Source: Escherichia coli (GTDB lineage Bacteria > Pseudomonadota > Gammaproteobacteria > Enterobacterales > Enterobacteriaceae). From it: 64,000 bases of DNA. This document shows positions 339 to 62,781 of the stretch, piece after piece; position 1 is the first letter of the stretch; every line of letters begins with the position of its first letter. The notes beneath the pieces are model-generated. The model did not search any database and was not told the DNA's origin. It saw only the letters and a list, made by a program, of their open reading frames with translations. Location of the stretch: NCBI RefSeq assembly GCF_036507355.1, contig NZ_AP027877.1; one strand, given 5' to 3'. A program made the translations under genes and the position numbers.

Positions 339-2024
339 ATGATAACCATTCCCATTACGTTTTGTATGTTGATAGCAAAGTATCTCTGTCTGCTGAAGCC
401 CTTTTGGCTGCGTAAGAATAATAAAACTTCAGTGTTGTTAATCATTATTATCCTCGCCATGATCCTTGGCGTGGTTAAAATTCAGGTCTGGTTAAACGAC
501 TGGAATAATGATTTTTTCAATGCGCTAAGCCAGAAAGAAACCGATAAGCTTTGGCAGCTTGTCCTTTGGTTCCCTGCCCTGCTGGGGATCTTTGTATTAA
601 TATCCGTAAACAAAACATGGTTAATTAAACTGCTGACTATTCGCTGGCGCGAATGGTTAACAGATTACTACCTTAATCGCTGGTTTGCAGATAAAAACTA
701 CTACTTCACGCAGATCTACGGCGAGCATAAAAATACAGATAACCCTGACCAACGTATCGCTGAAGACATTCTCTTACTGATCAGCAAAACGCTCAGTCTT
801 TCATTTGGCTTCATCCAGTCACTTAGCATGCTGATCACCTTTACCGTTATTCTTTGGCAAAGCGCGGGTACGCTCTCATTCACTGTTGGTGGAACAGAAT
901 GGAATATCCAGGGGTATATGGTCTATACCGTCGTGCTCATTGTGATCGGTGGAACTTTATTTACCCATAAGGTGGGTAAACGTATTCGTCCGCTTAATGT
1001 GGAAAAACAACGTAGCGAAGCGACATTTCGAACTAATCTTGTGCAGCATAATAAACAGGCAGAACTGATTGCGCTAAGCAATGCTGAGTCTCTACAACGC
1101 CAGGAGTTGAGCGACAATTTTCACACCATTAAAGAGAACTGGCATCGTTTAATGAATCGTCAGCGGTGGCTTGATTACTGGCAGAATATTTATTCGCGTT
1201 CGCTTAGCGTTCTTCCGTACTTTCTGTTATTGCCGCAGTTTATTAGCGGACAGATCAATCTGGGCGGACTTATGAAATCGCGCCAGGCATTTATGCTGGT
1301 ATCGAACAATTTAAGCTGGTTTATTTATAAATATGATGAAATTGCTGAACTGGCTGCGGTTATCGATCGCTTGTATGAGTTCCATCAACTCACCGAACAG
1401 CGCCCTACGAATAAGCCTAAAAATTGCCAACATGCGGTACAAGTGGCTGACGCGAGTATTCGTACCCCTGATAATAAGATCATATTAGAGAACCTGAACT
1501 TTCATGTTCCGCCAGGCAAATGGCTATTACTGAAAGGTTACTCTGGTGCGGGAAAAACCACACTGCTTAAAACATTATCCCACTGCTGGCCGTGGTTTAA
1601 AGGTGATATTTCTTCTCCTGCCGACAGTTGGTATGTGTCACAAACACCGTTAATCAAAACCGGCTTACTGAAAGAGATTATTTGTAAAGCACTTCCTCTG
1701 CCCGTAGACGATAAATCGTTGAGCGAAATACTGCATCAGGTTGGTCTGGGGAAATTGGCTGCGCGTATTCATGACCACGATCGCTGGGGAGATATTCTTT
1801 CCAGCGGCGAAAAACAACGTATCGCCCTGGCACGATTAATTTTACGACGTCCGAAATGGATATTTCTTGACGAAACTACCTCTCATCTTGAGGAACAAGA
1901 GGCTATCCGCTTACTGCGTTTAGTGCGTGAAAAACTACCCACAAGCGGCGTCATTATGGTTACACATCAACCCGGTGTCTGGAACCTGGCCGATGATATT
2001 TGTGACATTAGCGCGGTTTTATAA
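339..2024 (+). CDS. yddA: ABC transporter, fused permease/ATPase (YddA)
   Basis: 561-aa ORF; hydrophobic N-terminal half, C-terminal Walker A (GYSGAGKT) and ABC signature (LSSGEKQR); matches recalled E. coli YddA. Confidence 0.9.
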   Translation: MITIPITFCMLIAKYLCLLKPFWLRKNNKTSVLLIIIILAMILGVVKIQVWLNDWNNDFFNALSQKETDKLWQLVLWFPALLGIFVLISVNKTWLIKLLTIRWREWLTDYYLNRWFADKNYYFTQIYGEHKNTDNPDQRIAEDILLLISKTLSLSFGFIQSLSMLITFTVILWQSAGTLSFTVGGTEWNIQGYMVYTVVLIVIGGTLFTHKVGKRIRPLNVEKQRSEATFRTNLVQHNKQAELIALSNAESLQRQELSDNFHTIKENWHRLMNRQRWLDYWQNIYSRSLSVLPYFLLLPQFISGQINLGGLMKSRQAFMLVSNNLSWFIYKYDEIAELAAVIDRLYEFHQLTEQRPTNKPKNCQHAVQVADASIRTPDNKIILENLNFHVPPGKWLLLKGYSGAGKTTLLKTLSHCWPWFKGDISSPADSWYVSQTPLIKTGLLKEIICKALPLPVDDKSLSEILHQVGLGKLAARIHDHDRWGDILSSGEKQRIALARLILRRPKWIFLDETTSHLEEQEAIRLLRLVREKLPTSGVIMVTHQPGVWNLADDICDISAVL

Positions 2025-2061
2025 AAACAATAAAAGCCCTGCTGTACGGAGATATAAATAA

Positions 2062-4434
2062 ATGAAGCGAGTTCTTATTCCTGGCGTCATTTTATGTGGC
2101 GCTGATGTGGCGCAGGCCGTCGATGACAAAAACATGTACATGCATTTTTTTGAAGAGATGACGGTCTATGCTCCTGTCCCTGTACCCGTAAACGGCAACA
2201 CGCATTACACCAGTGAAAGCATCGAGCGTTTACCGACCGGGAATGGCAATATCAGCGATCTGCTGAGAACCAACCCTGCGGTACGCATGGATTCAACGCA
2301 AAGTACCTCGTTGAACCAGGGAGATATTCGCCCGGAGAAAATCTCTATTCACGGTGCGTCGCCCTACCAGAATGCCTATTTGATTGATGGTATTAGTGCC
2401 ACTAATAACCTGAACCCAGCGAATGAGTCCGATGCCAGTAGTGCAACCAATATTAGCGGGATGTCACAGGGGTATTATCTTGATGTCAGCTTACTGGACA
2501 ATGTGACGCTTTATGACAGTTTTGTGCCGGTTGAATTCGGTCGCTTCAATGGCGGGGTAATTGATGCAAAGATCAAACGCTTCAACGCTGATGATAGCAG
2601 CGTGAAACTGGGTTATCGCACTACGCGTTCGGACTGGTTAACATCGCATATCGATGAGAATAACAAGAGCGCATTTAATCAAGGTTCTTCAGGAAGTACT
2701 TATTACTCTCCAGATTTTAAAAAGAACTTTTATACCTTGTCGTTTAATCAGGAACTCGCTGATAACTTTGGCGTTACCGCCGGTTTATCGCGCCGCCAGT
2801 CTGATATCACCCGTGCGGATTATGTTTCGAATGACGGCATTGTCGCCGGTCGGGCACAGTATAAAAACGTTATCGATACTGCATTGAGCAAATTTACCTG
2901 GTTTGCCAGCGACCGCTTTACCCACGATTTAACCTTAAAATATACCGGCTCCAGCCGTGATTATAATACCAGCACCTTCCCGCAGTCTGATCGCGAAATG
3001 GGTAATAAATCCTATGGTCTGGCATGGGATATGGATACGCAGCTCGCATGGGCCAAACTACGTACCACCGTTGGTTGGGATCATATTAGTGATTATACCC
3101 GTCACGATCATGACATCTGGTACACCGAACTTTCATGTACATATGGTGATATTACAGGGCGTTGCACCCGTGGCGGATTAGGACACATTTCCCAGGCTGT
3201 AGATAATTACACCTTCAAAACACGCCTGGACTGGCAAAAATTCGCCGTGGGTAATGTTTCGCATCAACCCTACTTCGGCGCGGAATACATCTATTCCGAT
3301 GCATGGACTGAACGCCATAACCAGTCTGAATCCTATGTGATTAATGCTGCCGGAAAGAAAACTAACCATACCATTTACCATAAAGGTAAAGGCAGCCTGG
3401 GAATTGACAACTACACACTGTATATGGCGGATCGCATTAGCTGGCGTAATGTGTCATTAATGCCCGGCGTGCGGTATGACTATGACAACTATCTGTCAAA
3501 CCACAATATCTCCCCGCGCTTTATGACGGAATGGGATATTTTTGCTGATCAAACCTCAATGATTACCGCAGGTTATAACCGTTACTATGGTGGGAATATT
3601 CTTGATATGGGATTACGTGATATCCGCAATAGCTGGACGGAATCGGTATCAGGCAATAAAACCCTGACGCGTTATCAGGATTTGAAAACGCCTTATAACG
3701 ATGAACTGGCAATGGGATTGCAGCAAAAAATCGGTAAGAACGTTATTGCGCGCGCAAACTATGTTTACCGTGAAGCGCATGATCAAATCAGCAAAAGCAG
3801 TCGTACCGACAGCGCGACTAAAACCACCATTACTGAATATAACAACGATGGCAAAACCAAAACGCATTCGTTCAACCTCAGTTTTGAGCTGGCCGAACCC
3901 CTGCATATCCGCCAGGTAGATATTAACCCACAAATTGTCTTTAGCTATATCAAGAGCAAGGGCAACTTGTCGTTAAACAATGGTTATGAGGAGAGCAATA
4001 CCGGTGATAATCAGGTGGTTTATAACGGTAATCTTGTCTCTTACGATAGCGTTCCAGTGGCAGATTTTAATAACCCATTAAAGATCTCCTTAAACATGGA
4101 TTTCACGCATCAACCGAGCGGGTTGGTGTGGGCGAATACGCTGGCCTGGCAAGAAGCGCGTAAAGCTCGCATTATCCTTGGTAAGACAAATGCGCAATAC
4201 ATCAGCGAATATTCAGATTACAAGCAGTATGTTGACGAAAAACTGGATAGCAGCCTGACCTGGGACACCCGCTTGTCCTGGACGCCACAATTTCTGAAAC
4301 AACAAAACCTGACGATCAGTGCCGATATTCTCAATGTACTGGATAGCAAAACCGCTGTTGATACAACGAATACCGGTGTGGCGACCTACGCCAGTGGCCG
4401 TACTTTCTGGCTTGATGTCAGCATGAAATTTTAA
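2062..4434 (+). CDS. yddB: TonB-dependent receptor-like outer membrane protein YddB
   Basis: 790-aa ORF, C-terminal aromatic residue (ends ...DVSMKF), beta-barrel-like composition; position between yddA and pqqL as in E. coli. Confidence 0.85.
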   Translation: MKRVLIPGVILCGADVAQAVDDKNMYMHFFEEMTVYAPVPVPVNGNTHYTSESIERLPTGNGNISDLLRTNPAVRMDSTQSTSLNQGDIRPEKISIHGASPYQNAYLIDGISATNNLNPANESDASSATNISGMSQGYYLDVSLLDNVTLYDSFVPVEFGRFNGGVIDAKIKRFNADDSSVKLGYRTTRSDWLTSHIDENNKSAFNQGSSGSTYYSPDFKKNFYTLSFNQELADNFGVTAGLSRRQSDITRADYVSNDGIVAGRAQYKNVIDTALSKFTWFASDRFTHDLTLKYTGSSRDYNTSTFPQSDREMGNKSYGLAWDMDTQLAWAKLRTTVGWDHISDYTRHDHDIWYTELSCTYGDITGRCTRGGLGHISQAVDNYTFKTRLDWQKFAVGNVSHQPYFGAEYIYSDAWTERHNQSESYVINAAGKKTNHTIYHKGKGSLGIDNYTLYMADRISWRNVSLMPGVRYDYDNYLSNHNISPRFMTEWDIFADQTSMITAGYNRYYGGNILDMGLRDIRNSWTESVSGNKTLTRYQDLKTPYNDELAMGLQQKIGKNVIARANYVYREAHDQISKSSRTDSATKTTITEYNNDGKTKTHSFNLSFELAEPLHIRQVDINPQIVFSYIKSKGNLSLNNGYEESNTGDNQVVYNGNLVSYDSVPVADFNNPLKISLNMDFTHQPSGLVWANTLAWQEARKARIILGKTNAQYISEYSDYKQYVDEKLDSSLTWDTRLSWTPQFLKQQNLTISADILNVLDSKTAVDTTNTGVATYASGRTFWLDVSMKF

Positions 4435-4478: not shown

Positions 4479-7274
4479 ATGGAGATAATTATGAGAAACC
4501 TCTGTTTCTTACTGACGTTAGTGGCAACTCTGTTGCTCCCCGGGCGGCTGATTGCCGCCGCCTTACCGCAGGATGAAAAGTTAATTACCGGGCAACTGGA
4601 CAATGGCTTGCGATATATGATTTATCCGCATGCTCATCCAAAGGATCAGGTAAATTTATGGCTGCAAATTCATACCGGTTCATTGCAGGAAGAAGACAAT
4701 GAGCGCGGCGTGGCTCATTTTGTAGAACATATGATGTTTAACGGCACAAAAACATGGCCGGGTAATAAAGTCATCGAAACATTTGAGTCAATGGGCCTGC
4801 GTTTTGGTCACGATGTTAATGCCTATACCAGCTATGACGAAACGGTGTATCAGGTGAGTTTGCCGACTACGCAGAAACAAAATCTGCAACAAGTGATGGC
4901 AATCTTCAGTGAATGGAGTAATGCCGCAACCTTTGAAAAACTCGAAGTAGACGCTGAACGCGGCGTAATTACTGAGGAATGGCGTGCCCATCAGGATGCG
5001 AAATGGCGCACCTCTCAGGCGCGCCGCCCTTTCCTGCTGGCAAATACCCGTAATTTAGACCGTGAACCTATCGGCCTGATGGATACTGTCGCCACGGTCA
5101 CACCGGCACAATTGCGCCAATTTTATCAACGCTGGTATCAACCAAATAATATGACCTTTATCGTGGTTGGCGATATCGACAGTAAAGAAGCGCTGGCGCT
5201 GATAAAGGATAATTTAAGTAAGCTTCCAGCTAACAAAGCAGCTGAAAATCGCGTCTGGCCGACAAAAGCCGAAAATCACCTGCGCTTTAATATCATTAAT
5301 GATAAAGAAAACCGGGTGAACGGCATCGCACTCTATTATCGCCTGCCAATGGTACAAGTGAACGATGAGCAAAGCTTTATCGAACAAGCTGAATGGAGCA
5401 TGTTAGTTCAGCTGTTCAATCAACGTCTGCAGGAACGCATACAGTCGGGCGAGTTGAAGACTATTTCTGGCGGCACTGCGCGCAGCGTTAAAATTGCACC
5501 CGATTATCAGTCGCTGTTTTTCCGTGTAAATGCACGAGACGATAATATGCAGGATGCTGCGAATGCATTAATGGCAGAGTTGGCAGCCATTGATCAGCAT
5601 GGTTTTTCTGCTGAAGAACTCGATGATGTCAAATCTACCCGCCTCACCTGGCTGAAAAATGCGGTTGATCAGCAAGCTGAACGTGATTTACGTATGCTGA
5701 CCAGTCGCCTGGCATCAAGCTCATTAAATAATACGCCGTTCTTGTCGCCGGAAGAGACATATCAACTTTCGAAACGTCTGTGGCAGCAAATTACCGTGCA
5801 AAGTCTGGCGGAAAAATGGCAGCAGTTAAGAAAGAACCAGGACGCATTTTGGGAGCAAATGGTAAACAATGAGCTTGCCGCCAAAAAAGCATTGTCTCCT
5901 GCGGCTATCCTGGCGCTGGAAAAAGAGTACGCCAACAAAAAGCTGGCGGCTTACATCTTCCCAGGCAGAAATTTATCGTTAACAGTAGACGCTGACCCAC
6001 AGGCGGAAATTAGCAGCAAAGAAACGCTGGCTGAGAATCTGACATCATTAACACTTTCCAATGGTGCCAAGGTTATTCTGGCAAAATCCGCGGGTGAAGA
6101 GCAAAAGCTACAAATTATTGCCGTATCGAATAAAGGCGATTTAAGTTTCCCTGCGCAGCAAAAATCACTTATCGCGCTGGCAAATAAAGCAGTTAGCGGA
6201 AGCGGCGTTGGCGAACTCTCCTCTTCCAGCCTGAAACGCTGGAGTGCGGAAAATTCGGTAACCATGAGCAGTAAAGTCAGTGGCATGAATACGTTGCTCT
6301 CCGTTAGCGCGCGGACTAATAACCCTGAACCTGGTTTTCAGTTGATTAACCAGCGAATCACCCACAGCACGATTAACGACAATATTTGGGCATCGCTACA
6401 AAATGCTCAAATTCAGGCGTTGAAAACGCTCGACCAGCGTCCAGCGGAGAAATTCGCCCAGCAGATGTATGAGACGCGCTATGCTGATGACCGCACGAAA
6501 TTACTGCAAGAAAATCAGATTGCACAGTTTACTGCCGCAGATGCGCTGGCTGCCGATCGCCAGTTGTTTTCATCTCCAGCGGATATCACGTTTGTCATTG
6601 TCGGTAATGTCGCAGAAGACAAACTCGTGGCGTTAATTACGCGTTACTTAGGCTCAATCAAACACTCTGATTCGCCATTAGCCGCAGGTAAACCATTAAC
6701 TCGCGCGACGGACAACGCATCGGTTACTGTAAAAGAACAAAATGAACCTGTGGCACAGGTTTCACAGTGGAAGCGTTATGATTCCCGGACACCTGTTAAT
6801 CTGGCGACGCGTATGGCGCTCGATGCTTTTAACGTCGCACTGGCAAAAGATCTACGCGTTAATATTCGTGAACAGGCATCTGGGGCATACAGCGTTTCTT
6901 CTCGCCTCTCGGTTGATCCTCAGGCTAAAGATATCAGTCATTTGCTGGCTTTTACTTGTCAACCAGAACGACATGATGAACTGTTAACGTTAGCGAATGA
7001 AGTGATGGTTAAGCGTCTGGCTAAAGGGATCAGTGAGCAAGAACTGAATGAATACCAGCAAAACGTTCAGCGCAGCCTCGATATCCAACAGCGTAGCGTT
7101 CAACAATTAGCGAACACTATTGTAAATAGTCTTATTCAATATGACGATCCTGCAGCATGGACTGAGCAGGAGCAATTGCTGAAACAAATGACGGTAGAGA
7201 ATGTTAACACTGCCGTTAAACAATATCTTTCTCATCCGGTAAATACTTATACCGGAGTATTATTGCCAAAATAA
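4479..7274 (+). CDS. pqqL: periplasmic M16-family zinc peptidase PqqL
   Basis: 931-aa ORF with signal peptide and inverted zinc-binding motif HFVEH (HxxEH) typical of pitrilysin/M16 peptidases. Confidence 0.9.
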   Translation: MEIIMRNLCFLLTLVATLLLPGRLIAAALPQDEKLITGQLDNGLRYMIYPHAHPKDQVNLWLQIHTGSLQEEDNERGVAHFVEHMMFNGTKTWPGNKVIETFESMGLRFGHDVNAYTSYDETVYQVSLPTTQKQNLQQVMAIFSEWSNAATFEKLEVDAERGVITEEWRAHQDAKWRTSQARRPFLLANTRNLDREPIGLMDTVATVTPAQLRQFYQRWYQPNNMTFIVVGDIDSKEALALIKDNLSKLPANKAAENRVWPTKAENHLRFNIINDKENRVNGIALYYRLPMVQVNDEQSFIEQAEWSMLVQLFNQRLQERIQSGELKTISGGTARSVKIAPDYQSLFFRVNARDDNMQDAANALMAELAAIDQHGFSAEELDDVKSTRLTWLKNAVDQQAERDLRMLTSRLASSSLNNTPFLSPEETYQLSKRLWQQITVQSLAEKWQQLRKNQDAFWEQMVNNELAAKKALSPAAILALEKEYANKKLAAYIFPGRNLSLTVDADPQAEISSKETLAENLTSLTLSNGAKVILAKSAGEEQKLQIIAVSNKGDLSFPAQQKSLIALANKAVSGSGVGELSSSSLKRWSAENSVTMSSKVSGMNTLLSVSARTNNPEPGFQLINQRITHSTINDNIWASLQNAQIQALKTLDQRPAEKFAQQMYETRYADDRTKLLQENQIAQFTAADALAADRQLFSSPADITFVIVGNVAEDKLVALITRYLGSIKHSDSPLAAGKPLTRATDNASVTVKEQNEPVAQVSQWKRYDSRTPVNLATRMALDAFNVALAKDLRVNIREQASGAYSVSSRLSVDPQAKDISHLLAFTCQPERHDELLTLANEVMVKRLAKGISEQELNEYQQNVQRSLDIQQRSVQQLANTIVNSLIQYDDPAAWTEQEQLLKQMTVENVNTAVKQYLSHPVNTYTGVLLPK

Positions 7275-7280
7275 TAACAG

Positions 7281-7310
7281 CCCCGTCAACACATCGTTGG
7301 CGGGGATTTT
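7281..7310 (+). terminator. putative intrinsic terminator after pqqL
   Basis: imperfect GC-rich hairpin (ccccgtcaac...gttggcgggg) followed by attttagc just after the pqqL stop. Confidence 0.35.
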
Positions 7311-7536
7311 AGCAATATTCGCTATTTTTATGTAATAATTTTATAAATGCGTTCAAAATAATAACCAAGTACTAATAGTGATATTTTAAGGTCTGATTTT
7401 TACGTGATAATTCAGGAGGCGCAGAAAGCGCATAAAAATAACAACATAAAACACCTTGCCACCACCCAAGAATTCTCTATTGCATTGTTTTTTAATGGAA
7501 AAATATTATTCCAACAACATCTCACGATAAATAACA

Positions 7537-7556
7537 TTAGGATTTTGTTATTTAAA
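7537..7556 (+). promoter_or_regulatory. GAD box (GadE/GadX-dependent activator site) upstream of gadB
   Basis: exact 20-mer ttaggattttgttatttaaa, which matches the GAD-box consensus as I recall it, about 80 bp upstream of the gadB start codon. Confidence 0.7.
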
Positions 7557-7635
7557 CCAGAGTCCTTTGCACTTGCTTACTTTATCGATAAATCCTACTT
7601 TTTTAATGCGATCCAATCATTTTAAGGAGTTTAAA

Positions 7636-9036
7636 ATGGATAAGAAGCAAGTAACGGATTTAAGGTCGGAACTACTCGATTCACGTTTTGGTGCGAAGTC
7701 TATTTCCACTATCGCAGAATCAAAACGTTTTCCGCTGCACGAAATGCGCGACGATGTCGCATTTCAGATTATCAATGATGAATTATATCTTGATGGCAAC
7801 GCTCGTCAGAACTTGGCCACTTTCTGCCAGACCTGGGACGACGAAAACGTCCACAAGTTGATGGATTTATCCATTAACAAAAACTGGATCGACAAAGAAG
7901 AATATCCGCAATCTGCAGCCATCGACCTGCGTTGCGTAAATATGGTTGCCGATCTGTGGCATGCGCCTGCGCCGAAAAATGGTCAGGCCGTTGGCACCAA
8001 CACCATTGGTTCTTCCGAGGCCTGTATGCTCGGCGGGATGGCGATGAAATGGCGTTGGCGCAAGCGTATGGAAGCTGCAGGCAAACCAACGAATAAACCA
8101 AACCTGGTGTGCGGTCCGGTGCAAATCTGCTGGCATAAATTCGCCCGCTACTGGGATGTGGAGCTGCGTGAGATCCCTATGCGCTCCGGTCAGTTGTTTA
8201 TGGATCCGAAACGCATGATTGAAGCCTGCGACGAAAATACCATCGGCGTGGTGCCGACTTTCGGCGTGACCTACACCGGTAACTATGAGTTCCCGCAACC
8301 GCTGCACGATGCGCTGGATAAATTCCAGGCCGACACCGGTATCGACATCGACATGCACATCGACGCCGCCAGCGGTGGCTTCCTGGCACCGTTCGTCGCC
8401 CCGGATATCGTCTGGGACTTCCGCCTGCCGCGTGTGAAATCGATCAGTGCTTCAGGCCATAAATTCGGTCTGGCTCCGCTGGGCTGCGGCTGGGTTATCT
8501 GGCGTGATGAAGAAGCGCTGCCGCAGGAACTGGTGTTCAACGTTGACTACCTCGGTGGTCAGATTGGTACTTTCGCCATCAACTTCTCCCGCCCGGCGGG
8601 TCAGGTAATTGCACAGTACTATGAATTCCTGCGCCTCGGTCGTGAAGGCTATACCAAAGTACAGAACGCCTCTTACCAGGTTGCCGCTTATCTGGCGGAT
8701 GAAATCGCCAAACTGGGGCCGTATGAGTTCATCTGTACCGGTCGCCCGGACGAAGGCATTCCGGCGGTTTGCTTCAAACTCAAAGATGGTGAAGATCCGG
8801 GATACACCCTGTATGACCTCTCTGAACGTCTGCGTCTGCGCGGCTGGCAGGTTCCGGCCTTCACTCTCGGCGGTGAAGCCACCGACATCGTGGTGATGCG
8901 CATTATGTGTCGTCGCGGCTTCGAAATGGACTTTGCTGAACTGTTGCTGGAAGACTACAAAGCCTCCCTGAAATATCTCAGCGATCACCCGAAACTGCAG
9001 GGTATTGCCCAACAGAACAGCTTTAAACATACCTGA
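7636..9036 (+). CDS. gadB: glutamate decarboxylase beta (PLP-dependent)
   Basis: protein begins [18 protein letters not shown]...; the ORF-track start at 7567 is an upstream extension; SD aaggag at 7624-7629 precedes ATG at 7636; 466 aa. Confidence 0.95.
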
Positions 9037-9191: not shown

Positions 9192-10727
9192 ATGGCTACA
9201 TCAGTACAGACAGGTAAAGCTAAGCAGCTCACATTACTCGGCTTTTTTGCCATAACGGCATCGATGGTAATGGCTGTTTATGAATACCCTACCTTCGCAA
9301 CATCGGGCTTTTCATTAGTCTTCTTCCTGCTATTAGGCGGGATTTTATGGTTTATTCCCGTGGGACTTTGTGCTGCGGAAATGGCCACCGTCGACGGCTG
9401 GGAAGAAGGTGGTGTCTTCACCTGGGTATCAAATACTCTGGGACCGAGATGGGGATTTGCAGCGATCTCATTTGGCTATCTGCAAATCGCCATTGGTTTT
9501 ATTCCGATGCTCTATTTCGTGTTAGGGGCACTCTCCTACATCCTGAAATGGCCAGCGCTGAATGAAGACCCCATTACCAAAACTATTGCAGCACTCATCA
9601 TTCTTTGGGCGCTGGCATTAACGCAGTTTGGTGGCACGAAATACACGGCGCGAATTGCTAAAGTTGGCTTCTTCGCCGGTATCCTGTTACCTGCATTTAT
9701 TTTGATCGCATTAGCGGCTATTTATCTGCACTCCGGTGCCCCCGTTGCTATCGAAATGGATTCGAAGACCTTCTTCCCTGACTTCTCTAAAGTGGGCACC
9801 CTGGTTGTATTTGTTGCCTTCATTTTGAGTTATATGGGCGTAGAAGCTTCCGCAACTCACGTCAATGAAATGAGCAACCCCGGGCGCGACTATCCACTGG
9901 CTATGTTACTGCTGATGGTGGCGGCAATCTGCTTAAGCTCTGTTGGCGGTTTGTCTATTGCGATGGTCATTCCGGGTAATGAAATCAACCTCTCCGCAGG
10001 GGTAATGCAAACCTTTACCGTTCTGATGTCCCATGTGGCACCGGAAATTGAGTGGACGGTTCGCGTGATCTCCGCACTGCTGTTGCTGGGTGTTCTGGCG
10101 GAAATCGCCTCCTGGATTGTTGGTCCTTCTCGCGGGATGTATGTCACAGCGCAGAAAAACCTGCTGCCAGCGGCATTCGCTAAAATGAACAAAAATGGCG
10201 TACCGGTAACGCTGGTCATTTCGCAGCTGGTGATTACTTCTATCGCGTTGATCATCCTCACCAATACCGGTGGCGGTAACAACATGTCCTTCCTGATCGC
10301 ACTGGCGCTGACGGTGGTGATTTATCTGTGTGCTTATTTCATGCTGTTTATTGGCTACATTGTGTTGGTTCTTAAACATCCTGACTTAAAACGCACATTT
10401 AATATCCCTGGTGGTAAAGGGGTGAAACTGGTCGTGGCTATTGTCGGTCTGCTGACTTCAATTATGGCGTTTATTGTTTCCTTCCTGCCGCCGGATAATA
10501 TCCAGGGTGACTCTACCGATATGTATGTTGAATTACTGGTCGTTAGTTTCCTGGTGGTACTTGCCCTGCCCTTTATTCTCTATGCTGTTCATGATCGTAA
10601 AGGCAAAGCGAATACCGGCGTCACTCTGGAGCCAATCAACAGTAAGAACGCACCAAAAGGTCACTTCTTCCTGCACCCGCGTGCACGTTCACCACACTAT
10701 ATTGTGATGAATGACAAGAAACACTAA
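9192..10727 (+). CDS. gadC: glutamate:GABA antiporter
   Basis: 511-aa polytopic membrane protein (APC family) immediately downstream of gadB; sequence matches recalled GadC. Confidence 0.95.
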
Positions 10728-22618: not shown

Positions 22619-23509
22619 TTATGCGTCATAGGTTTTTTTTAACGTTTCCATCAACGCCTGCGCCGCAGTAGAAAGCTTATGGTGTGACGAACGCAGTACG
22701 CCTACTCGTCGCTCAATCACTGGATTATCCAGTTCCAGACACACTGCGCCCAGTTCGCTCATCTGCCTGCGGCACAGCGCAGGCACAGCGCTTCCTCCCA
22801 AACCGTTTGCCACCAGCCGCCCAACCGTAACCAGTTGATGGCTTTCCAGCGCCACTTCCAGTTGCGTTCCACTTTGTGCCAACTGCTCCTCCAGCATCAA
22901 CCTGACGGCTGACGGTCGCTGGAGGGTGATAAAATCGAGCGTCAGCAAATCCCGCCAACTCACGCGTTGCCGATTTGCCAGTCGTGAATCTGCTGGAACA
23001 ATAGCGACAAACCGATCCACGCCCAGTGGGGTAAAATGCACATGGCCGCAATAGTCAGGTTCAAAGGCAATACCCATCTCCACACGCCCTTCGCTCACCA
23101 TTTCGATCACCTGCTCATTCACCACATCGTGCACGGTGACATTAATCCCTGAATAACAATCGCGGAAGGTTTTCAGCACCGGAGGCAGAACGTTGGCTGC
23201 AAATGACGGCATCGCTGCCACCGAGACTTTGCCCCGCCTGAGCGTGAATCGCTGACGCATGGCCTCCTCAGTGTTATCCCAGTCAGCCAGCAAAGGCCGT
23301 GCCATCGACAATAGCGTTTCCCCCTCCTGGGTTAATGTCACTTTTCGCGTAGTACGCAGCAGTAAAGCGCCCCCTAAGGCATCTTCCAGTCCTTTAATGG
23401 CAAGACTTAGCGCAGGCTGCGACATATTCAGCCGTTCACTGGCATGGGCAAAGTTCAGAGTGTGAGCTACCGCTAAAAACGCGCGTAACTGTTTGATGCT
23501 CATTTTCAT
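22619..23509 (-). CDS. LysR-family transcriptional regulator, divergent from catabolic operon
   Basis: 296-aa ORF; N-terminal HTH (KQLRAFLAVAHTLNFAHASERLNMSQPALSLAIKGLE) and LysR substrate-binding region. Confidence 0.85.
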   Translation of the reverse strand: MKMSIKQLRAFLAVAHTLNFAHASERLNMSQPALSLAIKGLEDALGGALLLRTTRKVTLTQEGETLLSMARPLLADWDNTEEAMRQRFTLRRGKVSVAAMPSFAANVLPPVLKTFRDCYSGINVTVHDVVNEQVIEMVSEGRVEMGIAFEPDYCGHVHFTPLGVDRFVAIVPADSRLANRQRVSWRDLLTLDFITLQRPSAVRLMLEEQLAQSGTQLEVALESHQLVTVGRLVANGLGGSAVPALCRRQMSELGAVCLELDNPVIERRVGVLRSSHHKLSTAAQALMETLKKTYDA

Positions 23510-23650
23510 CTGGCACTCCGTTAACCTACTGAATACATTTAATTAACATTATATTGATAAATAATACAAATGAATGAGTCACAAATTTAAAATTAACAAA
23601 TCATTTTTTGCCCTTAATGATGTTGAAAAGGACAACTGGAGGGCAACTGT

Positions 23651-24358
23651 ATGGCTGGGTTGGATAAACGGGTCGCTACGTATCACGAGGCGCTTGAAGG
23701 ACTTACCAATGAGATGACGATTCTGGCAGGAGGTTTTGGCCTGTGCGGCATCCCGGAGAATCTGATTGCTGAAGTTCGCCACCGTGGAGTAACCGGATTA
23801 ACGGTGGTTTCCAATAACTGTGGCGTAGATGGTTTTGGACTGGGTGTACTACTGGAAAGCCGACAGATCCGTAAAGTCGTCGCTTCTTATGTTGGCGAGA
23901 ATGCTTTGTTTGAAAAACAGGTGCTTAACGGCGAACTGGAGGCGATTCTCACACCACAAGGAACCCTGGCAGAACAACTGCGCGCAGGCGGCGCGGGTAT
24001 CCCGGCGTTCTTTACTGCCACCGGTTACGGTACTCCCGTTGCCGAAGGGAAAGAAGTCCGCGAATTCAACGGTCGCCCGTACATCATGGAACAGGCTATC
24101 ACCGGTGATTTTGCCCTGGTCAAAGGCTGGAAAGCCGACTGGTACGGCAACGTGATTTATCGTCATACCGCGCAAAACTTCAACCCACTGATGGCGGCTG
24201 CCGGAAAAATCACCGTGGTGGAAGTGGAAGAAATAGTGCCACCTGGTGAACTAGATCCTGCCGCTATCCATACCCCGGGGATTTTTGTTAATCGCGTCAT
24301 TCAGGGGCAATTTGAAAAACGCATTGAACAACGCACCCTTAGCCGCAAAGGAGCCTGA
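23651..24358 (+). CDS. 3-oxoacid CoA-transferase subunit A (AtoD/ScoA-like)
   Basis: 235-aa ORF with CoA-transferase A-subunit signatures ([18 protein letters not shown]). Confidence 0.85.
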
Positions 24359-24360
24359 CC

Positions 24361-25017
24361 ATGTTAACCCGTGAACAAATGGCGATGCGAGTCGCCCGCG
24401 AATTGCGCGATGGCTATTACGTCAATCTCGGAATTGGTATCCCGACCCTGGTGGCAAACTACATTCCTGACGGGATGGATGTGATGTTGCAGTCAGAAAA
24501 CGGTTTGCTGGGAATGGGCGCATTTCCTACGGAAGACGAACTGGACGCCGACATGATTAATGCCGGTAAACAAACCGTTACCGCGCGGAAAGGCGCGGCA
24601 ATTTTCGATTCGGCGCAATCATTCGCCATGATCCGTGGCGGTCATGTGGATCTGACTGTACTTGGCGCATTTGAAGTGGATGTGAATGGCAACATTGCCT
24701 CATGGATGATCCCCGGCAAGATGGTTAAAGGCATGGGCGGTGCCATGGATCTGGTTGCCGGTGCCGAGAATATTATTGTGGTAATGACCCACGCCTCGAA
24801 ATCCGGCGAATCCAAACTGCTTCCTGACTGTACCCTTCCGTTGACCGGCGCCGGATGCATCAAACGCGTCTTAACCGACCTTGCTCTGCTGGAAATTGCT
24901 GACGGAGTTTTCATTCTGCGCGAGCGCGCGCCGGGAATCAGCGTTGCGGAAATCATCGCCAAAACCGCCGGTAAGTTGTTTGTGCCGGAACATGTCCCGG
25001 AAATGCAATTCAACTGA
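24361..25017 (+). CDS. 3-oxoacid CoA-transferase subunit B (AtoA/ScoB-like)
   Basis: 218-aa ORF; conserved SENG motif region (MLQSENGLLGMG) of B-subunits. Confidence 0.85.
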   Translation: MLTREQMAMRVARELRDGYYVNLGIGIPTLVANYIPDGMDVMLQSENGLLGMGAFPTEDELDADMINAGKQTVTARKGAAIFDSAQSFAMIRGGHVDLTVLGAFEVDVNGNIASWMIPGKMVKGMGGAMDLVAGAENIIVVMTHASKSGESKLLPDCTLPLTGAGCIKRVLTDLALLEIADGVFILRERAPGISVAEIIAKTAGKLFVPEHVPEMQFN

Positions 25018-25026
25018 GGAATCACG

Positions 25027-26232
25027 ATGCAGGACGTTGTTATTGTTGCCGCTACGCGCACGCCGATTGGCTGTTTTCATGGCGCTCTCGCCCCACTTTC
25101 TGCGGTTGATCTCGGTGCTGCCACCATTCGTTCGTTGCTGGAGAAAACAGCACTTGCAGCAGAACAGATCGACGAAGTGATTTTTGGTCAGGTCCTGATC
25201 GCCGGAAGCGGACAAAACCCGGCACGACAATCGGCGCTCAAAGCCGGGTTAAGCCACAATACACCCGCCGTTACCATCAACCTGGTATGTGGTTCCGGTC
25301 TGAAAGCCGTACACCAGGCAGTGCAGGCGATCCGTTGCGGTGATGCACAGATAATTATCGCAGGTGGCCAGGAAAGCATGAGCAACGCGCCCTATTTTAT
25401 TGATGGCGCACGGGCAGGTTTACGCCTCGGGCATACCAGCATGAAAGACAGCGTGGTGCATGACGGACTATGGGACGCTTTCAATGATTACCACATGGGC
25501 ATTACTGCAGAAAACCTGGCGCAAAAATATGCCATCAGTCGCGAGCGACAGGACACATTCGCGCTACGTTCTCAGCAAAAAGCCGCTGCCGCAATGGAAG
25601 CCGGGCGCTTTGCAGACGAAATTACTCCGGTCAGCGTACCACAAGGTAAAAAACCACCACGCAGGGTAAATACCGACGAACAACCACGTTCCGGGACGCA
25701 ACTGGAAAAACTAGCACAACTGAAACCGGCCTTTCTTCCGGGGGCGGGAAGCGTCACCGCAGGAAATGCTTCTTCCATCAATGATGGTGCCGCCGCAGTC
25801 ATGTTAATGCGTGCCAGCAAAGCTGCCGAACTTGGCCTCCCAGTGCTGGCTCGGGTGGCTGGTTATGCCGTTTCTGGCGTCGATCCTGCCTTTATGGGCA
25901 TTGGTCCGGTCGCCGCTACCCGCGAATGTCTTAAGCGTTGCGGATGGACGCTGGAAGATATTGATCTTATTGAAGCCAACGAGGCTTTCGCAGCGCAGGC
26001 GCTGGCTGTTGGCGACGAACTGAACTGGGATTGCGACAAAGTGAATGTTAACGGCGGCGCAATCGCACTTGGGCATCCTATTGGCGCTTCCGGTTGCCGC
26101 ATTCTGGTCACTCTCATTTATGAAATGGCGCGACGTAATGCGCAAAAAGGGCTGGCGACGCTGTGCGTCGGTGGCGGTCAGGGCGTGGCGCTGACACTGG
26201 AAAGAACCACAGGAGAACACCATGCAAACTGA
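25027..26232 (+). CDS. acetyl-CoA C-acetyltransferase (thiolase II)
   Basis: 401-aa ORF; thiolase motifs ([10 protein letters not shown] active-site Cys region; C-terminal CVGGGQGVA). Confidence 0.9.
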
Positions 26233-27145
26233 ACAATTTGCGGTACTGGGCGCCGGATTGATGGGCGTGGGGATTGCCACTCATTTCGCCCGCTTTGGTC
26301 ATGATATCTGGCTGTACGATACCGAGCAGAGCCGGATTGCAGAAATCCACGTAGTTGCAGGCGGAATTCTTGATGAGCTGATTAGCTGCGAACAGTTTAC
26401 TGCCCCGGAAAAAGAGAATGTGCTTAAACGTCTGCACGGCACGACTTCTCTTGCAGACATCGCCGACTCGCAACTACTGATTGAGGCGATCCCGGAGCGA
26501 CTTGAACTAAAACACGCATTATATACCGAGCTTGAAACGCTTATTTCTCCTGAGGCCATTGTCGCCAGCAATACCAGCGGTCTGCCGCCCGATGATCTGG
26601 CCGCGAAGATGCGCTACCCGCAACGACTGCTGATCGCCCATTTCTGGCATCCGCCGCACTTCATTCCACTCGTGGAGATTATCCCCGGCAGCGTTACCGA
26701 GCCAAAGCATTTGCACTGGCTGCAACACTTGCTTGTGTCACTGCAACTGGAAGCAGTGTTGCTGGATCGCGCTGCGCCAGGATTTGTCGGCAACCGTCTG
26801 CAATTTGCACTGTTGCGTGAAGCCCTGCATATCGTAAAAAGCGGCATCGCCAGTGCAGAAGTGGTGGATCAGGTGATGCGCGCCTCGCTTGGGCGACGTT
26901 ATGCCATGGTCGGCCCGCTGGAGGCCGCCGACATGACCGGACTTTCGACGGTGCAGGATATTTGTCGCCATCTGCTCCCTGAACTAGCGACTGGCAGCGA
27001 CATGATGTCATTAGTTGCCGAAAAAGTGGAACGTGGAGACATCGGCGTACGTAGCGGTCAGGGATTTTACTGCTGGGATGAATCGCGGAAGCAGTACATC
27101 CAGCAGCGTCGGGAACATCAACTTCGCTTCGCCCTTAAACCATAA
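26222..27145 (+). CDS. 3-hydroxyacyl-CoA dehydrogenase family protein
   Basis: 307-aa ORF; N-terminal Rossmann GxGxxG (LGAGLMGVG); overlaps thiolase stop. Confidence 0.8.
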
Positions 27146-27190
27146 CTTCTCTCGCTGTACCCACTATAACAACGATATTGAGGAGTCCCG

Positions 27191-28582
27191 ATGAGTGTAT
27201 TAATCGCCCTTGCCGCGCTTGGGCTGCTAATGCTGGCAGCCTATCGCGGATACAGCGTTATCCTTTTTGCCCCCATCGCAGCATTAGGCGCTGTTCTTGT
27301 CACCGATCCGGGGGCCGTTGGCCCAGCATTTACCGGCCTGTTCATGGAAAAAATGGTCGGCTTCGTGAAATTGTACTTCCCGGTGTTTCTGCTCGGGGCC
27401 GTGTTCGGAAAACTGATTGAACTTTCAGGATTTTCTCGTTCGATTGTCGCTGCTGCAATCAACATTCTCGGCCGGCGGCATGCGATTCCGGTGATTGTGC
27501 TGGTATGTGCATTACTCACCTATGGCGGAGTGTCGCTGTTTGTGGTGGCATTTGCCGTTTATCCGTTCGCGGCTGAACTGTTCCGCCAGAGTAACATCCC
27601 AAAACGACTTATACCGGCAACGGTGGCCCTGGGGGCATTCTCTTTTACTATGGACGCTCTGCCCAGCACGCCACAAATTCAGAACATTATTCCTACCAGT
27701 TTCTTTGGCACCAACGCCTGGGCCGCGCCGTGGCTGGGGCTTATTGGTTCACTGTTTATCATTGCCGTCGGGCTTATCTATCTGGAGCGGCAGCGTCGTA
27801 AAGCGCAGGCAAAAAATGAAGGTTACGGCACAGAGTTACTTAATGAACCTGAAACACCAGATAACATCAATTTACCGAACCCACTCATTGCGATTTCACC
27901 ATTGATTCTGGTGGGGCTGTTGAACTTGTTGTTTACCTGGTGGATCCCTGTTTGGTACGGTGCGAGCCACCAACTGGAGTTGCCGGGACTTGCCGCCCCG
28001 ATTACCACAGATGTCGCCAAAATCACCGCAATCTGGGCCGTCGAAGCTGCGCTCATTGCCGGAATTTTGCTGGTAGTGATTTTTGGATATCGCAATATTC
28101 ATGGAAGACTGGCAGAAGGAAGCCGTACAGCGGTGGGCGGCGCAATTCTGGCTGCGATGAACACCGCCTCAGAATATGGCTTCGGTGCGGTTATCGCCGC
28201 CCTACCCGGTTTTCTGGTGCTCTCAAAGGCGCTGGCCGCCATTCCTGATCCATTACTCAACGAAGCCATCAGCATCACCACACTTGCCGGAATTACCGGT
28301 TCAGCGTCCGGCGGGATGAGTATTGCTCTTGCGGCTATGTCCGACACTTTTATTGCCGCTGCGCACGCTGCCAATATTCCACTGGAAGTTTTTCACCGCG
28401 TGGCATCTATGGCCAGTGGCGGCATGGATACATTGCCCCATAACGGCGCTGTGATCACCCTGCTGGCAATTACTGGGCTGAGTCACCGTCAGGCTTACGG
28501 CGGCATCTTCGCAATTACGATCATTAAAAGTCTGGCCGTGCTGTTTATCATCGGCGTGTACTACACCACCGGCATTGTCTAA
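27191..28582 (+). CDS. GntP-family permease (probable 3-hydroxybutyrate/short-chain hydroxy-acid transporter)
   Basis: 463-aa polytopic membrane ORF with GntP-like organisation; operon context. Confidence 0.7.
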   Translation: MSVLIALAALGLLMLAAYRGYSVILFAPIAALGAVLVTDPGAVGPAFTGLFMEKMVGFVKLYFPVFLLGAVFGKLIELSGFSRSIVAAAINILGRRHAIPVIVLVCALLTYGGVSLFVVAFAVYPFAAELFRQSNIPKRLIPATVALGAFSFTMDALPSTPQIQNIIPTSFFGTNAWAAPWLGLIGSLFIIAVGLIYLERQRRKAQAKNEGYGTELLNEPETPDNINLPNPLIAISPLILVGLLNLLFTWWIPVWYGASHQLELPGLAAPITTDVAKITAIWAVEAALIAGILLVVIFGYRNIHGRLAEGSRTAVGGAILAAMNTASEYGFGAVIAALPGFLVLSKALAAIPDPLLNEAISITTLAGITGSASGGMSIALAAMSDTFIAAAHAANIPLEVFHRVASMASGGMDTLPHNGAVITLLAITGLSHRQAYGGIFAITIIKSLAVLFIIGVYYTTGIV

Positions 28583-28593
28583 GGAAAATCATC

Positions 28594-29364
28594 ATGAATT
28601 TACAAGGTAAAACTGCGCTGGTGACGGGGTCCACCAGCGGTATCGGACTCGGTATTGCTCAGACACTGGCAAACGCTGGCGCGCAAGTGATCCTCAACGG
28701 CTTCGGTGATGTTGACGCGGCAATCAATGCGGTTTCTCGTATGGGTAAAACGCCTGGCTATCATGAGGCAGACCTCAGCGATGAATCGCAAATTATCAAC
28801 ATGGTGGCCTACGCATGGCGGGAATTTGGCGGTGTGGACATTCTGGTGAATAACGCCGGGATCCAGTATGTCTCCCCGGTTGAATCTTTCCCTGTAGAAA
28901 AATGGAACGCCATTATCGCTATCAATCTCTCTTCTGTCTTTCACACCACGCGTCTGGCACTGCCAGAAATGCGCACTCGTAACTGGGGTCGGATCATTAA
29001 CATTGCCTCTGTGCATGGGCTGGTAGCGTCGAAAGACAAATCAGCTTATGTTGCGGCAAAACATGGCGTGGTGGGACTCACAAAGACCATTGCTCTGGAA
29101 ACTGCGCAGACCGGTATTACCTGCAACGCGCTCTGCCCTGGCTGGGTGCTGACGCCGCTGGTACAACAGCAGATTGATAAGCGCATTGCGCAAGGCGAAG
29201 ATGCGGAAAGCGCGCGTGACGCCTTACTGGCAGAAAAACAGCCTTCTCGTGAATTTGTGACTCCGCAACAACTGGGTGAACTGGCGCTGTTTCTCTGTTC
29301 GGATGCGGCAGCACAAGTGCGTGGGGTGGCGTGGAATATGGATGGCGGTTGGGTAGCGCAGTAA
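28594..29364 (+). CDS. 3-hydroxybutyrate dehydrogenase (SDR family)
   Basis: 256-aa ORF; SDR cofactor motif TGSTSGIG and YxxxK catalytic region; strong resemblance to BdhA-type enzymes. Confidence 0.85.
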   Translation: MNLQGKTALVTGSTSGIGLGIAQTLANAGAQVILNGFGDVDAAINAVSRMGKTPGYHEADLSDESQIINMVAYAWREFGGVDILVNNAGIQYVSPVESFPVEKWNAIIAINLSSVFHTTRLALPEMRTRNWGRIINIASVHGLVASKDKSAYVAAKHGVVGLTKTIALETAQTGITCNALCPGWVLTPLVQQQIDKRIAQGEDAESARDALLAEKQPSREFVTPQQLGELALFLCSDAAAQVRGVAWNMDGGWVAQ

Positions 29365-58410: not shown

Positions 58411-58701
58411 TCACTTACCAATTAATCTCACAGGAAATCCAACTTCCTTACCACAAATACAATCCCAAGTAACACCTCCCAAAATTTTTGATACTTTAGG
58501 CTGCAATGGCATTATTGACATTATAAATTTATCAAGTTCTTCGCTATATTTAATTCCCTTTATATTTCTTATTATTGATATTCTAGCAGTAAAGATAGCC
58601 GTCTCTCCATCTACACTAAAAGTGTAATTACAATTTTTTGTAATCTCATCAAATTCAACCGATAACAAATCAATATTATGGTTTGTAAACACTATGCCCA
58701 T
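58411..58701 (-). CDS. small protein, candidate cognate immunity protein
   Basis: 96-aa ORF whose start overlaps the 3' end of the effector gene by 26 nt; no signal peptide evident. Confidence 0.45.
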   Translation of the reverse strand: MGIVFTNHNIDLLSVEFDEITKNCNYTFSVDGETAIFTARISIIRNIKGIKYSEELDKFIMSIMPLQPKVSKILGGVTWDCICGKEVGFPVRLIGK

Positions 58702-60115
58702 TCCATACCTCCTTAAATTCCTGTTCAGTCATCAGATATCGACTCCCTTGATATGGATCATATATTATCACATTCCCAGCATCATCAACACCCTTAACAA
58801 GTACCCAATGCCCTACTTTACTTCCAGAATCCCACATCATTGCTCCCCATGAACCAGTATTACTGAGGGCATATAAACTAGATTCGCTCACTGCATTCCC
58901 TTCCCAGCCGACATCAAATTTATTAAGCTTGTTTGCCAGCGACGTCATAGATGTTAATTCTGTTCCAATTACATTTTGCGTGACAAAAATATACCTATCC
59001 CTAAGCAACATTTCCCCACAGGCCGCTCCACAGCCTGTTAAAGTCAATTGCTTTATTACATTTGAATCTAAAACCTCATCAAATACTGTCCAATTGCCAC
59101 CAGCACCACCTTCTAAAACTACCGGCTCTACAAATACTTTCCCAGAGATATTTTCTTCTGGTATTTTTGCGGGTATCATAAAGCCCCATAAAAAGCTGGC
59201 AAAATGCTCCAGAGCAATCTGATCACCATTATTTGCATCCATTATCATTTTTTTAAGTGCATCCCATGCTTGCCCATTTATCAATGAATCACTAATATTA
59301 AATAAAGCCTGTTCTTTTTCGTTTAAATTTATATTTGCCTGTTCACATAACCCATCTTCGCCTATCGGGCAAGCAACCGTTGCCGTTGCCGTATCTAACA
59401 GAGCATCGAATGTAACTAAGGCTAAATCCGCCACACCATGTAAAGTGGTGATTGCTCCATTCCCCATTTGAGTAAGTGTGTTCTCTACAAACCATTCTCT
59501 AATTTGAGATTTATCTCCTTCAATATCATTCCTGAGAGATTCTCTGATATTCTTTATTGAAAAAAACTCCCCCCATGATTGGTCAGGATCTTTTATTTGG
59601 AATAAATCATTTTTAACCTCAGGTGAAATATCTCCGTCAAAAATATTACCAACAGAGAGGAGATCCTTCAGAAGCAGTAAATCGTGTATTACTTCAGCAG
59701 TCCTTTCATAATTAAAAGTTCTATCAATGACAGAAATCATTGGTGATTTTATTTTGGTATATAATTTACCAAGGCAGTTATGGTTATTAATCCCAACAAC
59801 TGAACCATGATAAGCGACAGGTCTCCCCTCTATTGTTACAGTCGGACTTCCCGTTAAAATAACGCAGTCACCTGTTCCTTGAGATGTACCAGATATGACA
59901 CCTTTACCGGCATTACTTTGAGTTCCAGCAATCACTGAACCAACATTTAAAGCTCTGCATCCACGCGCCCATACCGTTGAACTGTACTGCCTTTCACTAT
60001 CTAAAGTCTGGTAACTGTCAAAAGGAACCTTGTCACCTCCTACTTCACATACATCTGGTGAAGAGCACACGACTTTAAATCTACATTCACCATCCCCGAT
60101 ATGATAGCTACCCAT
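58676..60115 (-). CDS. T6SS effector candidate: N-terminal PAAR-like (DUF4150-type) domain fused to C-terminal papain/C39-like cysteine peptidase domain
   Basis: 479-aa ORF; N-terminus contains SPDVC and GDCVILTGSPTVTIEGRPVAYHGS segments typical of PAAR-like domains; C-terminus has GCGAACGEML (candidate nucleophile Cys) and GHWVLVKGVDDAGNVIIYDPYQG (His/Asp), the order seen in Peptidase_C39-like/papain-fold domains. Confidence 0.6.
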   Translation of the reverse strand: MGSYHIGDGECRFKVVCSSPDVCEVGGDKVPFDSYQTLDSERQYSSTVWARGCRALNVGSVIAGTQSNAGKGVISGTSQGTGDCVILTGSPTVTIEGRPVAYHGSVVGINNHNCLGKLYTKIKSPMISVIDRTFNYERTAEVIHDLLLLKDLLSVGNIFDGDISPEVKNDLFQIKDPDQSWGEFFSIKNIRESLRNDIEGDKSQIREWFVENTLTQMGNGAITTLHGVADLALVTFDALLDTATATVACPIGEDGLCEQANINLNEKEQALFNISDSLINGQAWDALKKMIMDANNGDQIALEHFASFLWGFMIPAKIPEENISGKVFVEPVVLEGGAGGNWTVFDEVLDSNVIKQLTLTGCGAACGEMLLRDRYIFVTQNVIGTELTSMTSLANKLNKFDVGWEGNAVSESSLYALSNTGSWGAMMWDSGSKVGHWVLVKGVDDAGNVIIYDPYQGSRYLMTEQEFKEVWNGHSVYKP

Positions 60116-60698
60116 AATATTTTTTTCCTATACATTCAGGAATAATACAACTCAGCACTCCTTCTTTCATTCCAAAAAAATCAGGTATTGTCAATCTCCA
60201 GGTAAGGTATATTTCCTGTCGATTTAAATCGATAACCATTGTATCCGCAACAGGTAAGAACATATGAGATGTATTATGCTTGGTTTTTAATATAAGTACA
60301 GGTCGTATACCTGGCAATTTTGTCTTAACAACCTGTTCAAATTTAAAAAAACCTTCAAGAGTGATGTTTTCATCGCCAGAGAGAAACCCCGCGTATATCA
60401 TATCCGGATGAGCACTATTGTAGAACCTCTCATCAAAATCATCCGGCAAATAGGGATAGCGCTTTTCACGCCATACTTCATTGTAGGTTCCTGCATACTG
60501 GAGGCGACTTTTCCACCATCGAGATACAGGGCCAACGCCTTGAAAAAAGTCAGATTCCCCATTAAAAATGGTAGCGTTTTCTGACAAAGCAGAGCTGGTT
60601 ATTTGTGGGAGTTTATATTGACAACTTGTATTAAGTTGGGAAATATCAGGATAATATCCACAACCTACAGGGTTTGCTGAAAAAACCAATTTTCCCAT
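60108..60698 (-). CDS. hypothetical protein, possibly 5'-truncated adaptor (DUF2169-like) for the downstream PAAR-like effector
   Basis: 196-aa ORF between vgrG and the PAAR-like effector; frame stays open upstream of the annotated Met without a start; assignment by gene-order analogy only. Confidence 0.3.
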   Translation of the reverse strand: MGKLVFSANPVGCGYYPDISQLNTSCQYKLPQITSSALSENATIFNGESDFFQGVGPVSRWWKSRLQYAGTYNEVWREKRYPYLPDDFDERFYNSAHPDMIYAGFLSGDENITLEGFFKFEQVVKTKLPGIRPVLILKTKHNTSHMFLPVADTMVIDLNRQEIYLTWRLTIPDFFGMKEGVLSCIIPECIGKKYYG

Positions 60699-61517
60699 AC
60701 CATCTGGTTGCCAAATACCACCGTAAGCAAGCTCATAGCGTAGAGGAATATTAATAATTTTATCGTGAGATGCTGATCGTTCGCTACCACAATCTTCTGA
60801 TCATGACTGCCTTCCTTCTTACTCCCAACATTCACCGTCTGACCCACACCCACCGTAATTTTCTGGTTATTGGTTATGGTTTCCGTGTGGTCGTGTTTCA
60901 CCGTCGTCGTCCGGTCATTCAGCACCTCCGTATCCATGTTCTTCTGCGCATGGATATACACCTGCTCATTACTGGTGGCGTCTTCAAACCGCAGCTCGTT
61001 AAATCCGCTTCCTTTATAGGTTTTTGACCGGATGGTCATCTGCGTCTTCGTTCCCGGCAGGTCGCCCGGCGAACGGTTGTCCTCATGGTAGGTCCGCCCC
61101 ATGATTATCGGCTGGTCCGGGTCGCCGTTCAGAAAATCAACAATCACCTCCTGGCCCACCCGCGGTATCGCCAGGTTACCGAACCCCGGCCCCGCCCACG
61201 CCTGCGATACCCGCACCCAGCATGAACTCGCCTCCGTCATCCCGTGATAACGGTCCCAGTGGAACTTCACCCGTACCCGGCCATGTTCATCGCAGAAGAT
61301 TTCCTCTCCCGCAGGCCCGGTGACAATGGCACTCTGCGGCCCGTCCACCTTCGGTTTGCTTTGCAGCCGTGGACGCCACGTCCGGTCCGCCGGTATCACC
61401 TCTAACTGATTTCCCAGCGTGGTTCCTCTCCCTTGGCTGCCGTGCAGCGCCTGCGGCTGGTTTCCTGACAGAATGCTCTGTACCACCTGCCATTCACGGT
61501 TCAGCATCTTCTGCGGA
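60665..61517 (-). pseudogene. vgrG: vgrG (T6SS spike), distal part, downstream of IS insertion; 3' end abruptly AT-rich
   Basis: translation ...PQKMLNREWQVVQSILSGNQPQALHGSQGRGTTLGNQLEVIPADRTWRPRLQSKPKVDGPQSAIVTGPAGEEIFCDEHGRVRVKFHWDR... (gp5-like region); continues the reading frame of the proximal part across the insertion. Confidence 0.85.
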
Positions 61518-61560
61518 TGAGGTGTACTGGCAATAGCGGACACTACCATTTGTTCTTTTT

Positions 61561-62379: not shown

Positions 62380-62414
62380 CGCTTCAATGGGAAATTGTTG
62401 TCGCCATTGTTCGA

Positions 62415-62717: not shown

Positions 62718-62781
62718 TATTAGCTCCTTCTGATGCCATTCTATTTCAGGAAGGAGTGTCCGTTAAACTCAGGCTACCTCA

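Follow-up and report, generated by a model that had tools for sequence, protein, structure and literature searches.

Organization of the gadBC locus and its promoter

The window, i.e., the whole 64-kb stretch of Escherichia coli DNA that was analyzed, carries a gadBC operon in which a full-length gadB is followed by a full-length gadC, placed in the context pqqL–gadB–gadC–digH (Table 1). The order of genes in this region (yddA-yddB-pqqL-gadB-gadC-digH-dosC-dosP-ddp) is the same as in K-12 and other E. coli. The ORFs of gadB and gadC contain no internal stop codons, and none were found in the 14 genes compared with strain A30. The predicted GadB and GadC proteins differ from their K-12 counterparts by two substitutions each (D153N and P184S in GadB; A77T and Q485K in GadC). 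Both GadB substitutions (D153N, GAT to AAT, positions 8092-8094; P184S, CCC to TCC, positions 8185-8187) also distinguish the protein from K-12 GadA and from the corresponding proteins of three other strains. A 56-mer spanning GadB codon 153 or codon 184 had no identical match in 5,423 complete E. coli genomes, containing approximately 10,800 gad copies, and the two substitutions appear to be private to this lineage.

Table 1. Features of the pqqL–gadC region of the window.
Feature	Position	Strand	Remarks
pqqL	4479-7274	+	from the mechanical ORF list
Stem-loop just 3' of the pqqL stop codon (AUUUU follows)	7281-7305	+	10-bp GC-rich stem
GadX/GadW-like motif AGGTCTGATTTTTACGTGAT	7389-7408	+	1 mismatch to the ChIP-exo motif AKGKCTGWTWTTWWYMYVAK
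GAD box TTAGGATTTTGTTATTTAAA	7537-7556	+	20/20 identity to the published box
Gap between box and -35	7557-7572	+	16 bp; 7557-7559 polymorphic, CCA here and CAC in K-12
-35-like hexamer TTGCTT	7573-7578	+	weak; inferred from spacing and K-12 identity
Spacer between -35 and -10	7579-7595	+	17 bp; holds the RcsB box, includes CGATAAATCC
RcsB box CGATAAATCCTA, putative repressive site abutting -10	7586-7597	+	approximate limits, after the description in PMC2887963
-10-like hexamer TACTTT	7596-7601	+	17 bp 3' of -35; predicted by homology and spacing
Shine-Dalgarno sequence AAGGAGT	7624-7630	+	
gadB start codon ATG	7636	+	
gadB, glutamate decarboxylase B, intact	7636-9036	+	466 aa; translation, matching annotations
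gadC, glutamate:GABA antiporter, intact, co-transcribed with gadB	9192-10727	+	511 aa

The GAD box is located within the pqqL–gadB intergenic spacer (361 bp, 7275-7635), which is very AT-rich around the box and aligns to the K-12 sequence with zero gaps. Between the box and the gadB start codon, only two bases, immediately 3' of the box, distinguish the two sequences. The -35 and -10 elements of gadBC in this strain were assigned by homology and spacing, and we infer that transcription starts at about position 7609-7610, which is 26-27 nt before the ATG and would place the center of the box at -62.5 to -63.5. In the published description, the GAD box is a 20-bp element, situated 16 bp upstream of the -35 hexamer and centered 63 bp before the transcription start (PMC2887963); in the window, a 16-bp gap separates the box from TTGCTT, and the box lies at about -63 from the predicted start. 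The CTTGC core of the -35 region is common to the gadA and gadB promoters and is likewise conserved among Escherichia species. The same paper reports that gadB keeps the RcsB box directly upstream of the -10 hexamer, apart from a leftmost C in place of G (PMC2887963), and this difference between gadB (C) and gadA (G) was seen in our alignment. A generic sigma-70 scan of positions 7200-7700 missed the gadBC promoter and gave a single match, on the minus strand, which is fewer than in shuffled sequences; such a miss is expected, because the gadBC promoter is weak as well as activator- and RpoS-dependent.

Two further elements were distinguished in the spacer. The GadX/GadW motif AKGKCTGWTWTTWWYMYVAK, taken from the ChIP-exo study PMC4918353, has one match in the window, whose significance is weak (0.21 matches expected; at least one match in 20 of 100 shuffles). 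The matching sequence is unchanged in K-12, is situated approximately 200-220 bp upstream of the predicted gadB start and is likely to represent a distal GadX/W site. The second element is the hairpin that follows pqqL (-18.6 kcal/mol, z = -4.85); although not called by a simple terminator scan, it is probably the intrinsic terminator of pqqL, insulating the gadBC promoter from read-through. A mechanically predicted ORF overlapping the promoter (7404-7625, 73 aa, GTG start codon) was judged to be spurious and is annotated in none of the compared genomes. A small RNA was also considered as an explanation and dropped, as none of the Rfam families matched the pqqL–gadB spacer when the complete window was scanned.

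The initial annotation took the GAD box to mean that the regulatory architecture of acid resistance is intact in this strain. At gadBC this is correct with regard to (i) the cis elements, i.e., the box, the 16-bp gap, the -35 hexamer, the RcsB box, the -10 hexamer, the 5'UTR, the Shine-Dalgarno sequence and the distal GadX/W-like motif, all of which are intact, and (ii) the two structural genes, gadB and gadC, which are of full length. For the strain as a whole the statement can be only partly demonstrated, because gadE, rcsB, gadX, gadW and gadA are located outside the window.

Genetic background of the window

Over positions 1-25000, strain A30 (isolated from a baboon) has the closest match to the window among the 5,426 complete E. 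coli genomes, at no more than approximately 99.0% identity, and is followed by O145 strains. At this level of identity, the DNA is therefore derived from an E. coli-type lineage outside that collection. The divergence from A30 is uneven, with 61 nucleotide differences in pqqL, 44 in ddpF and 1 in yddA. The sequence of this region suggests a mosaic, recombinant background, originating from a lineage unrepresented among the complete genomes.

A gene cluster absent from K-12 is located between ddpF and osmC (22619-29364). It comprises genes for a LysR family regulator (minus strand), CoA transferase subunits A and B, acetyl-CoA C-acetyltransferase, 3-hydroxyacyl-CoA dehydrogenase, a GntP permease and 3-hydroxybutyrate dehydrogenase, and it is similarly annotated in O145 and baboon-derived strains. 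Within fdnG, an Rfam SECIS_3 element (38057-38115, minus strand, 84 bits) was identified, which is the expected selenocysteine signal of formate dehydrogenase-N; fdnG is split at a UGA codon in the ORF list because of this selenocysteine insertion signal.

Two tandem ORFs encoding leucine-rich-repeat proteins of 421 and 424 aa (Pfam LRR_4 and LRR_8) were found on the plus strand at 41333-43914, between narU and a gene annotated as ompC (porin) in an O145 genome. The closest O145 genome differs in this stretch and carries a 96-codon fragment labeled "incomplete; missing C-terminus", then a stretch without annotation and, after it, one full-length LRR gene. The distal part of the window contains a degraded, orphan type VI secretion cargo island (58676-63707, minus strand). 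It encodes a 479-aa protein with Tox-PAAR-like and Peptidase_C39 domains, a DUF2169 ORF cut to 196 aa, and a VgrG protein split by an IS3-family transposase gene (61561-62379) into an N-terminal part with a Phage_GPD domain (62769-63707) and a C-terminal part with a Gp5/OB domain (60665-61549). Coverage of at least 80% of the 45-64 kb region was observed in only 33 complete E. coli genomes.

Identity and conservation of the GAD box

A 20-bp match to the GAD box upstream of gadB was the core of the initial annotation, and it proved accurate in each respect: the site is the exact published 20-mer TTAGGATTTTGTTATTTAAA, its coordinates are right to the base, and the gene downstream is gadB. The sequence is that of the characterized asymmetric GadE site printed in PMC4918353. 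It is identical to the gadB box of K-12 (NC_000913.3, 1572125-1572144, minus strand) and, in all 20 bases, to the K-12 gadA box, so the proposed alignment with the gadA and gadB promoters disclosed no discrepancy with characterized GAD boxes. Since no base departs from the wild-type box, all three of its G residues (3/3) are kept, among them the conserved G that is altered in the M1 mutant described below. The box is the single match in the window when both strands are searched with up to 3 mismatches, and under the same threshold 100 dinucleotide-preserving shuffles of the window gave 0 matches.

In comparison with the K-12 gadBC promoter, the 20-mer, its position between pqqL and gadB, the -35 hexamer, the RcsB box, the -10 hexamer, the 5'UTR, the Shine-Dalgarno sequence and the distance to the ATG are all identical, and the differences are confined to the flanks of the box, namely the three-base variant 3' of it (Table 1) and several substitutions on its 5' side, within 7512-7518. 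With the exception of C at 7518, which is private among the nine alleles described below, these flank variants are common to other natural E. coli. The K-12 gadA promoter shares with the window the same 20-mer, the same 16-bp gap to the CTTGC core, the GATAAATCCTACTTTTTT RcsB-box/-10 block and the Shine-Dalgarno sequence, whereas the flanks of its box are unrelated on both sides to those of gadB in the window, the alignment resuming only at CTTGC. The genetic context of gadA is also different, since this gene belongs to the acid fitness island and neighbors gadXW.

The GadE motif obtained by ChIP-exo, TTARGAWWWWAAATA (hdeAB/hdeD and other targets; PMC4918353), has the left half TTAGGA(T/A)4 in common with the GAD box; the gadA and gadB boxes represent the strict, full-length form, as opposed to this looser motif. 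Its use as a box detector was abandoned: with up to 2 mismatches, the 15-nt motif gave 3 matches in the window versus 3.75 expected, none of them at the box, and it is non-discriminating in this DNA.

The conservation of the box was assessed in nine E. coli alleles of the gadB upstream region, chosen to span the range of identities to an 80-bp query. Of the 374 intergenic columns in the alignment, 35 are variable, and 0 of these fall within the box, while the positions directly beside it (7536 and 7557-7559) are variable. No variation at all was seen among the nine alleles in the core promoter (7560-7648), nor in the RcsB box. The probability that a fixed block of 20 columns is invariant by chance is 0.13 over the whole spacer, which is non-significant alone, and approximately 0.006 within 7419-7559, a stretch that was picked post hoc. 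The spacer was matched in 5,405 of the 5,426 complete E. coli genomes, and the GAD box is present in essentially every E. coli.

The exact 20-mer was also searched for in 298 Gb of GTDB species representatives (one genome per species), where 11 sites were found. Eight of the 11 are located upstream of gadA and/or gadB in Escherichia, i.e., in E. albertii, E. whittamii, Escherichia sp. E1V33 and the E. coli-named E69 and SCPM-O-B-8794, with strongly diverged flanks. Copies from other species were collected by an exact-match search, in which variant boxes are invisible, and the cross-species sample is therefore biased towards conservation. With this bias in the cross-species sample, the box is more conserved than the surrounding intergenic DNA, as is also the case in the nine E. 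coli alleles.

The remaining three of the 11 sites are chance matches on contigs of unrelated metagenome-assembled genomes (MAGs) of Bacteroidales and Lentisphaeria. Exact copies may thus arise by chance in a collection of 298 Gb, which is the one point in favor of regarding the site in the window as a functionless coincidence in AT-rich intergenic DNA. This explanation is rejected outright, as the shuffled sequences gave no match even when 3 mismatches were tolerated, the site occupies the orthologous position of the experimentally defined K-12 site, with the same spacing, and the box is invariant while both flanks vary.

A gadB promoter devoid of the GAD box was observed in a natural isolate, E. 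coli AR_0085 (NZ_CP029741.1, locus 1838-3089). In this strain the 80-bp query matches only the part 3' of the box, which abuts a C-terminally truncated gene of the sulfatase family adjacent to ydeO; this arrangement implies a deletion that starts in the sulfatase gene, takes in yddA, yddB and pqqL, and ends at the gadB core promoter.

The view that a canonical GAD-box activator site precedes gadBC is borne out by the identity of the sequence, its location and the synteny. We regard it as almost certain that 7537-7556 represents the GAD box in the promoter of the gadBC operon, i.e., a GadE–RcsB activator site, and nothing observed speaks against it.

Predicted regulation of gadBC and its significance

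The GAD box was first described in 2001, according to citations in PMC4918353 and PMC6128205. The published footprinting, EMSA and mutagenesis (PMC2887963) were performed on the K-12 gadA box, and these biochemical data may be extended to gadB because the two boxes are identical. GadE together with RcsB produces a DNase I footprint from -50 to -76, and EMSA with differently tagged proteins indicated that one GadE–RcsB heterodimer is bound, with an apparent Kd of approximately 10 nM. A single G-to-C mutation in the box (M1) abolishes both the complex and GadE-dependent activation in vivo. RcsB alone binds a separate box adjoining the -10 hexamer, at high concentration only, and at high levels it represses through this site (all PMC2887963).

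Binding of GadE–RcsB to the box of this strain, and the resulting activation, are deduced from the literature on the identical box. Under acid conditions or in stationary phase, a heterodimer of GadE (LuxR family) and RcsB (a response regulator) would bind 7537-7556 and, once bound, would activate the transcription of gadB, encoding glutamate decarboxylase, and of gadC, encoding the glutamate/GABA antiporter. High levels of RcsB would repress gadBC via the RcsB box that abuts the -10 hexamer. The proposed scheme also includes the putative distal GadX/W-like site, approximately 210 bp upstream of the gadBC start.

The initial annotation considered the site to be GadE-dependent, which is right and yet incomplete, since GadE binds the box as a heterodimer with RcsB (PMC2887963). 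An older model regards it as a site for GadE only, bound by a homodimer, with RcsB having no direct role. Binding of GadE to the box is described in earlier literature cited in PMC2887963 and PMC6128205, and the ChIP-exo study (PMC4918353) also treats the box as a GadE site. However, MBP-GadE alone neither protects nor shifts box DNA, and the earlier results were ascribed to contamination of the GadE preparations with RcsB (PMC2887963). The mixed-tag EMSA indicated a heterodimer, and the left half of the box is similar to an RcsB half-site (PMC2887963), which makes the homodimer model very improbable. The likeness to RcsB and RcsAB boxes (NarL/FixJ-type) concerns this left half, and RcsB is one subunit of the bound heterodimer; unlike an RcsB box, the GAD box is asymmetric and requires the GadE partner.

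It has also been considered that the 20-mer is conserved mainly as a target of the AraC-family proteins GadX and GadW, or of H-NS, serving chiefly in repression or anti-repression. PMC6128205 mentions reports that GadX and GadW can compete for gad-box sequences in some conditions, and the region is very AT-rich, as are H-NS targets. The GadX/W motif of the window is nevertheless situated away from the box, and a point mutation in the box abolishes activation by GadE (PMC2887963), which exceeds 50-fold, against less than 2-fold for GadX (PMC4918353). In addition, the conservation of 20 out of 20 positions amid polymorphic AT-rich flanks is unlike the loose binding requirements of H-NS. A primary role of the 20-mer in GadX/GadW or H-NS binding is thus extremely unlikely, even less probable than the homodimer model, and recognition by the GadE–RcsB heterodimer is strongly preferred.

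The variable positions 3' of the box (7557-7559) fall within the published -50 to -76 footprint of GadE–RcsB. The CCA variant, combined with D153N and P184S in GadB, could in principle tune gadBC induction or decarboxylase activity and confer quantitatively different acid resistance, which we consider improbable; the significance of the flank variants at 7557-7559 and of the two GadB substitutions is probably nil.

The GAD box of gadBC is a known textbook element, the copy in this strain does not depart from the reference, and its finding has little importance beyond annotation. Natural loss of the box does occur, by the predicted deletion in AR_0085, in contrast to the invariant box elsewhere. 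As an invariant 20-bp island with polymorphic bases on either side, the box illustrates purifying selection acting on a transcription-factor site.
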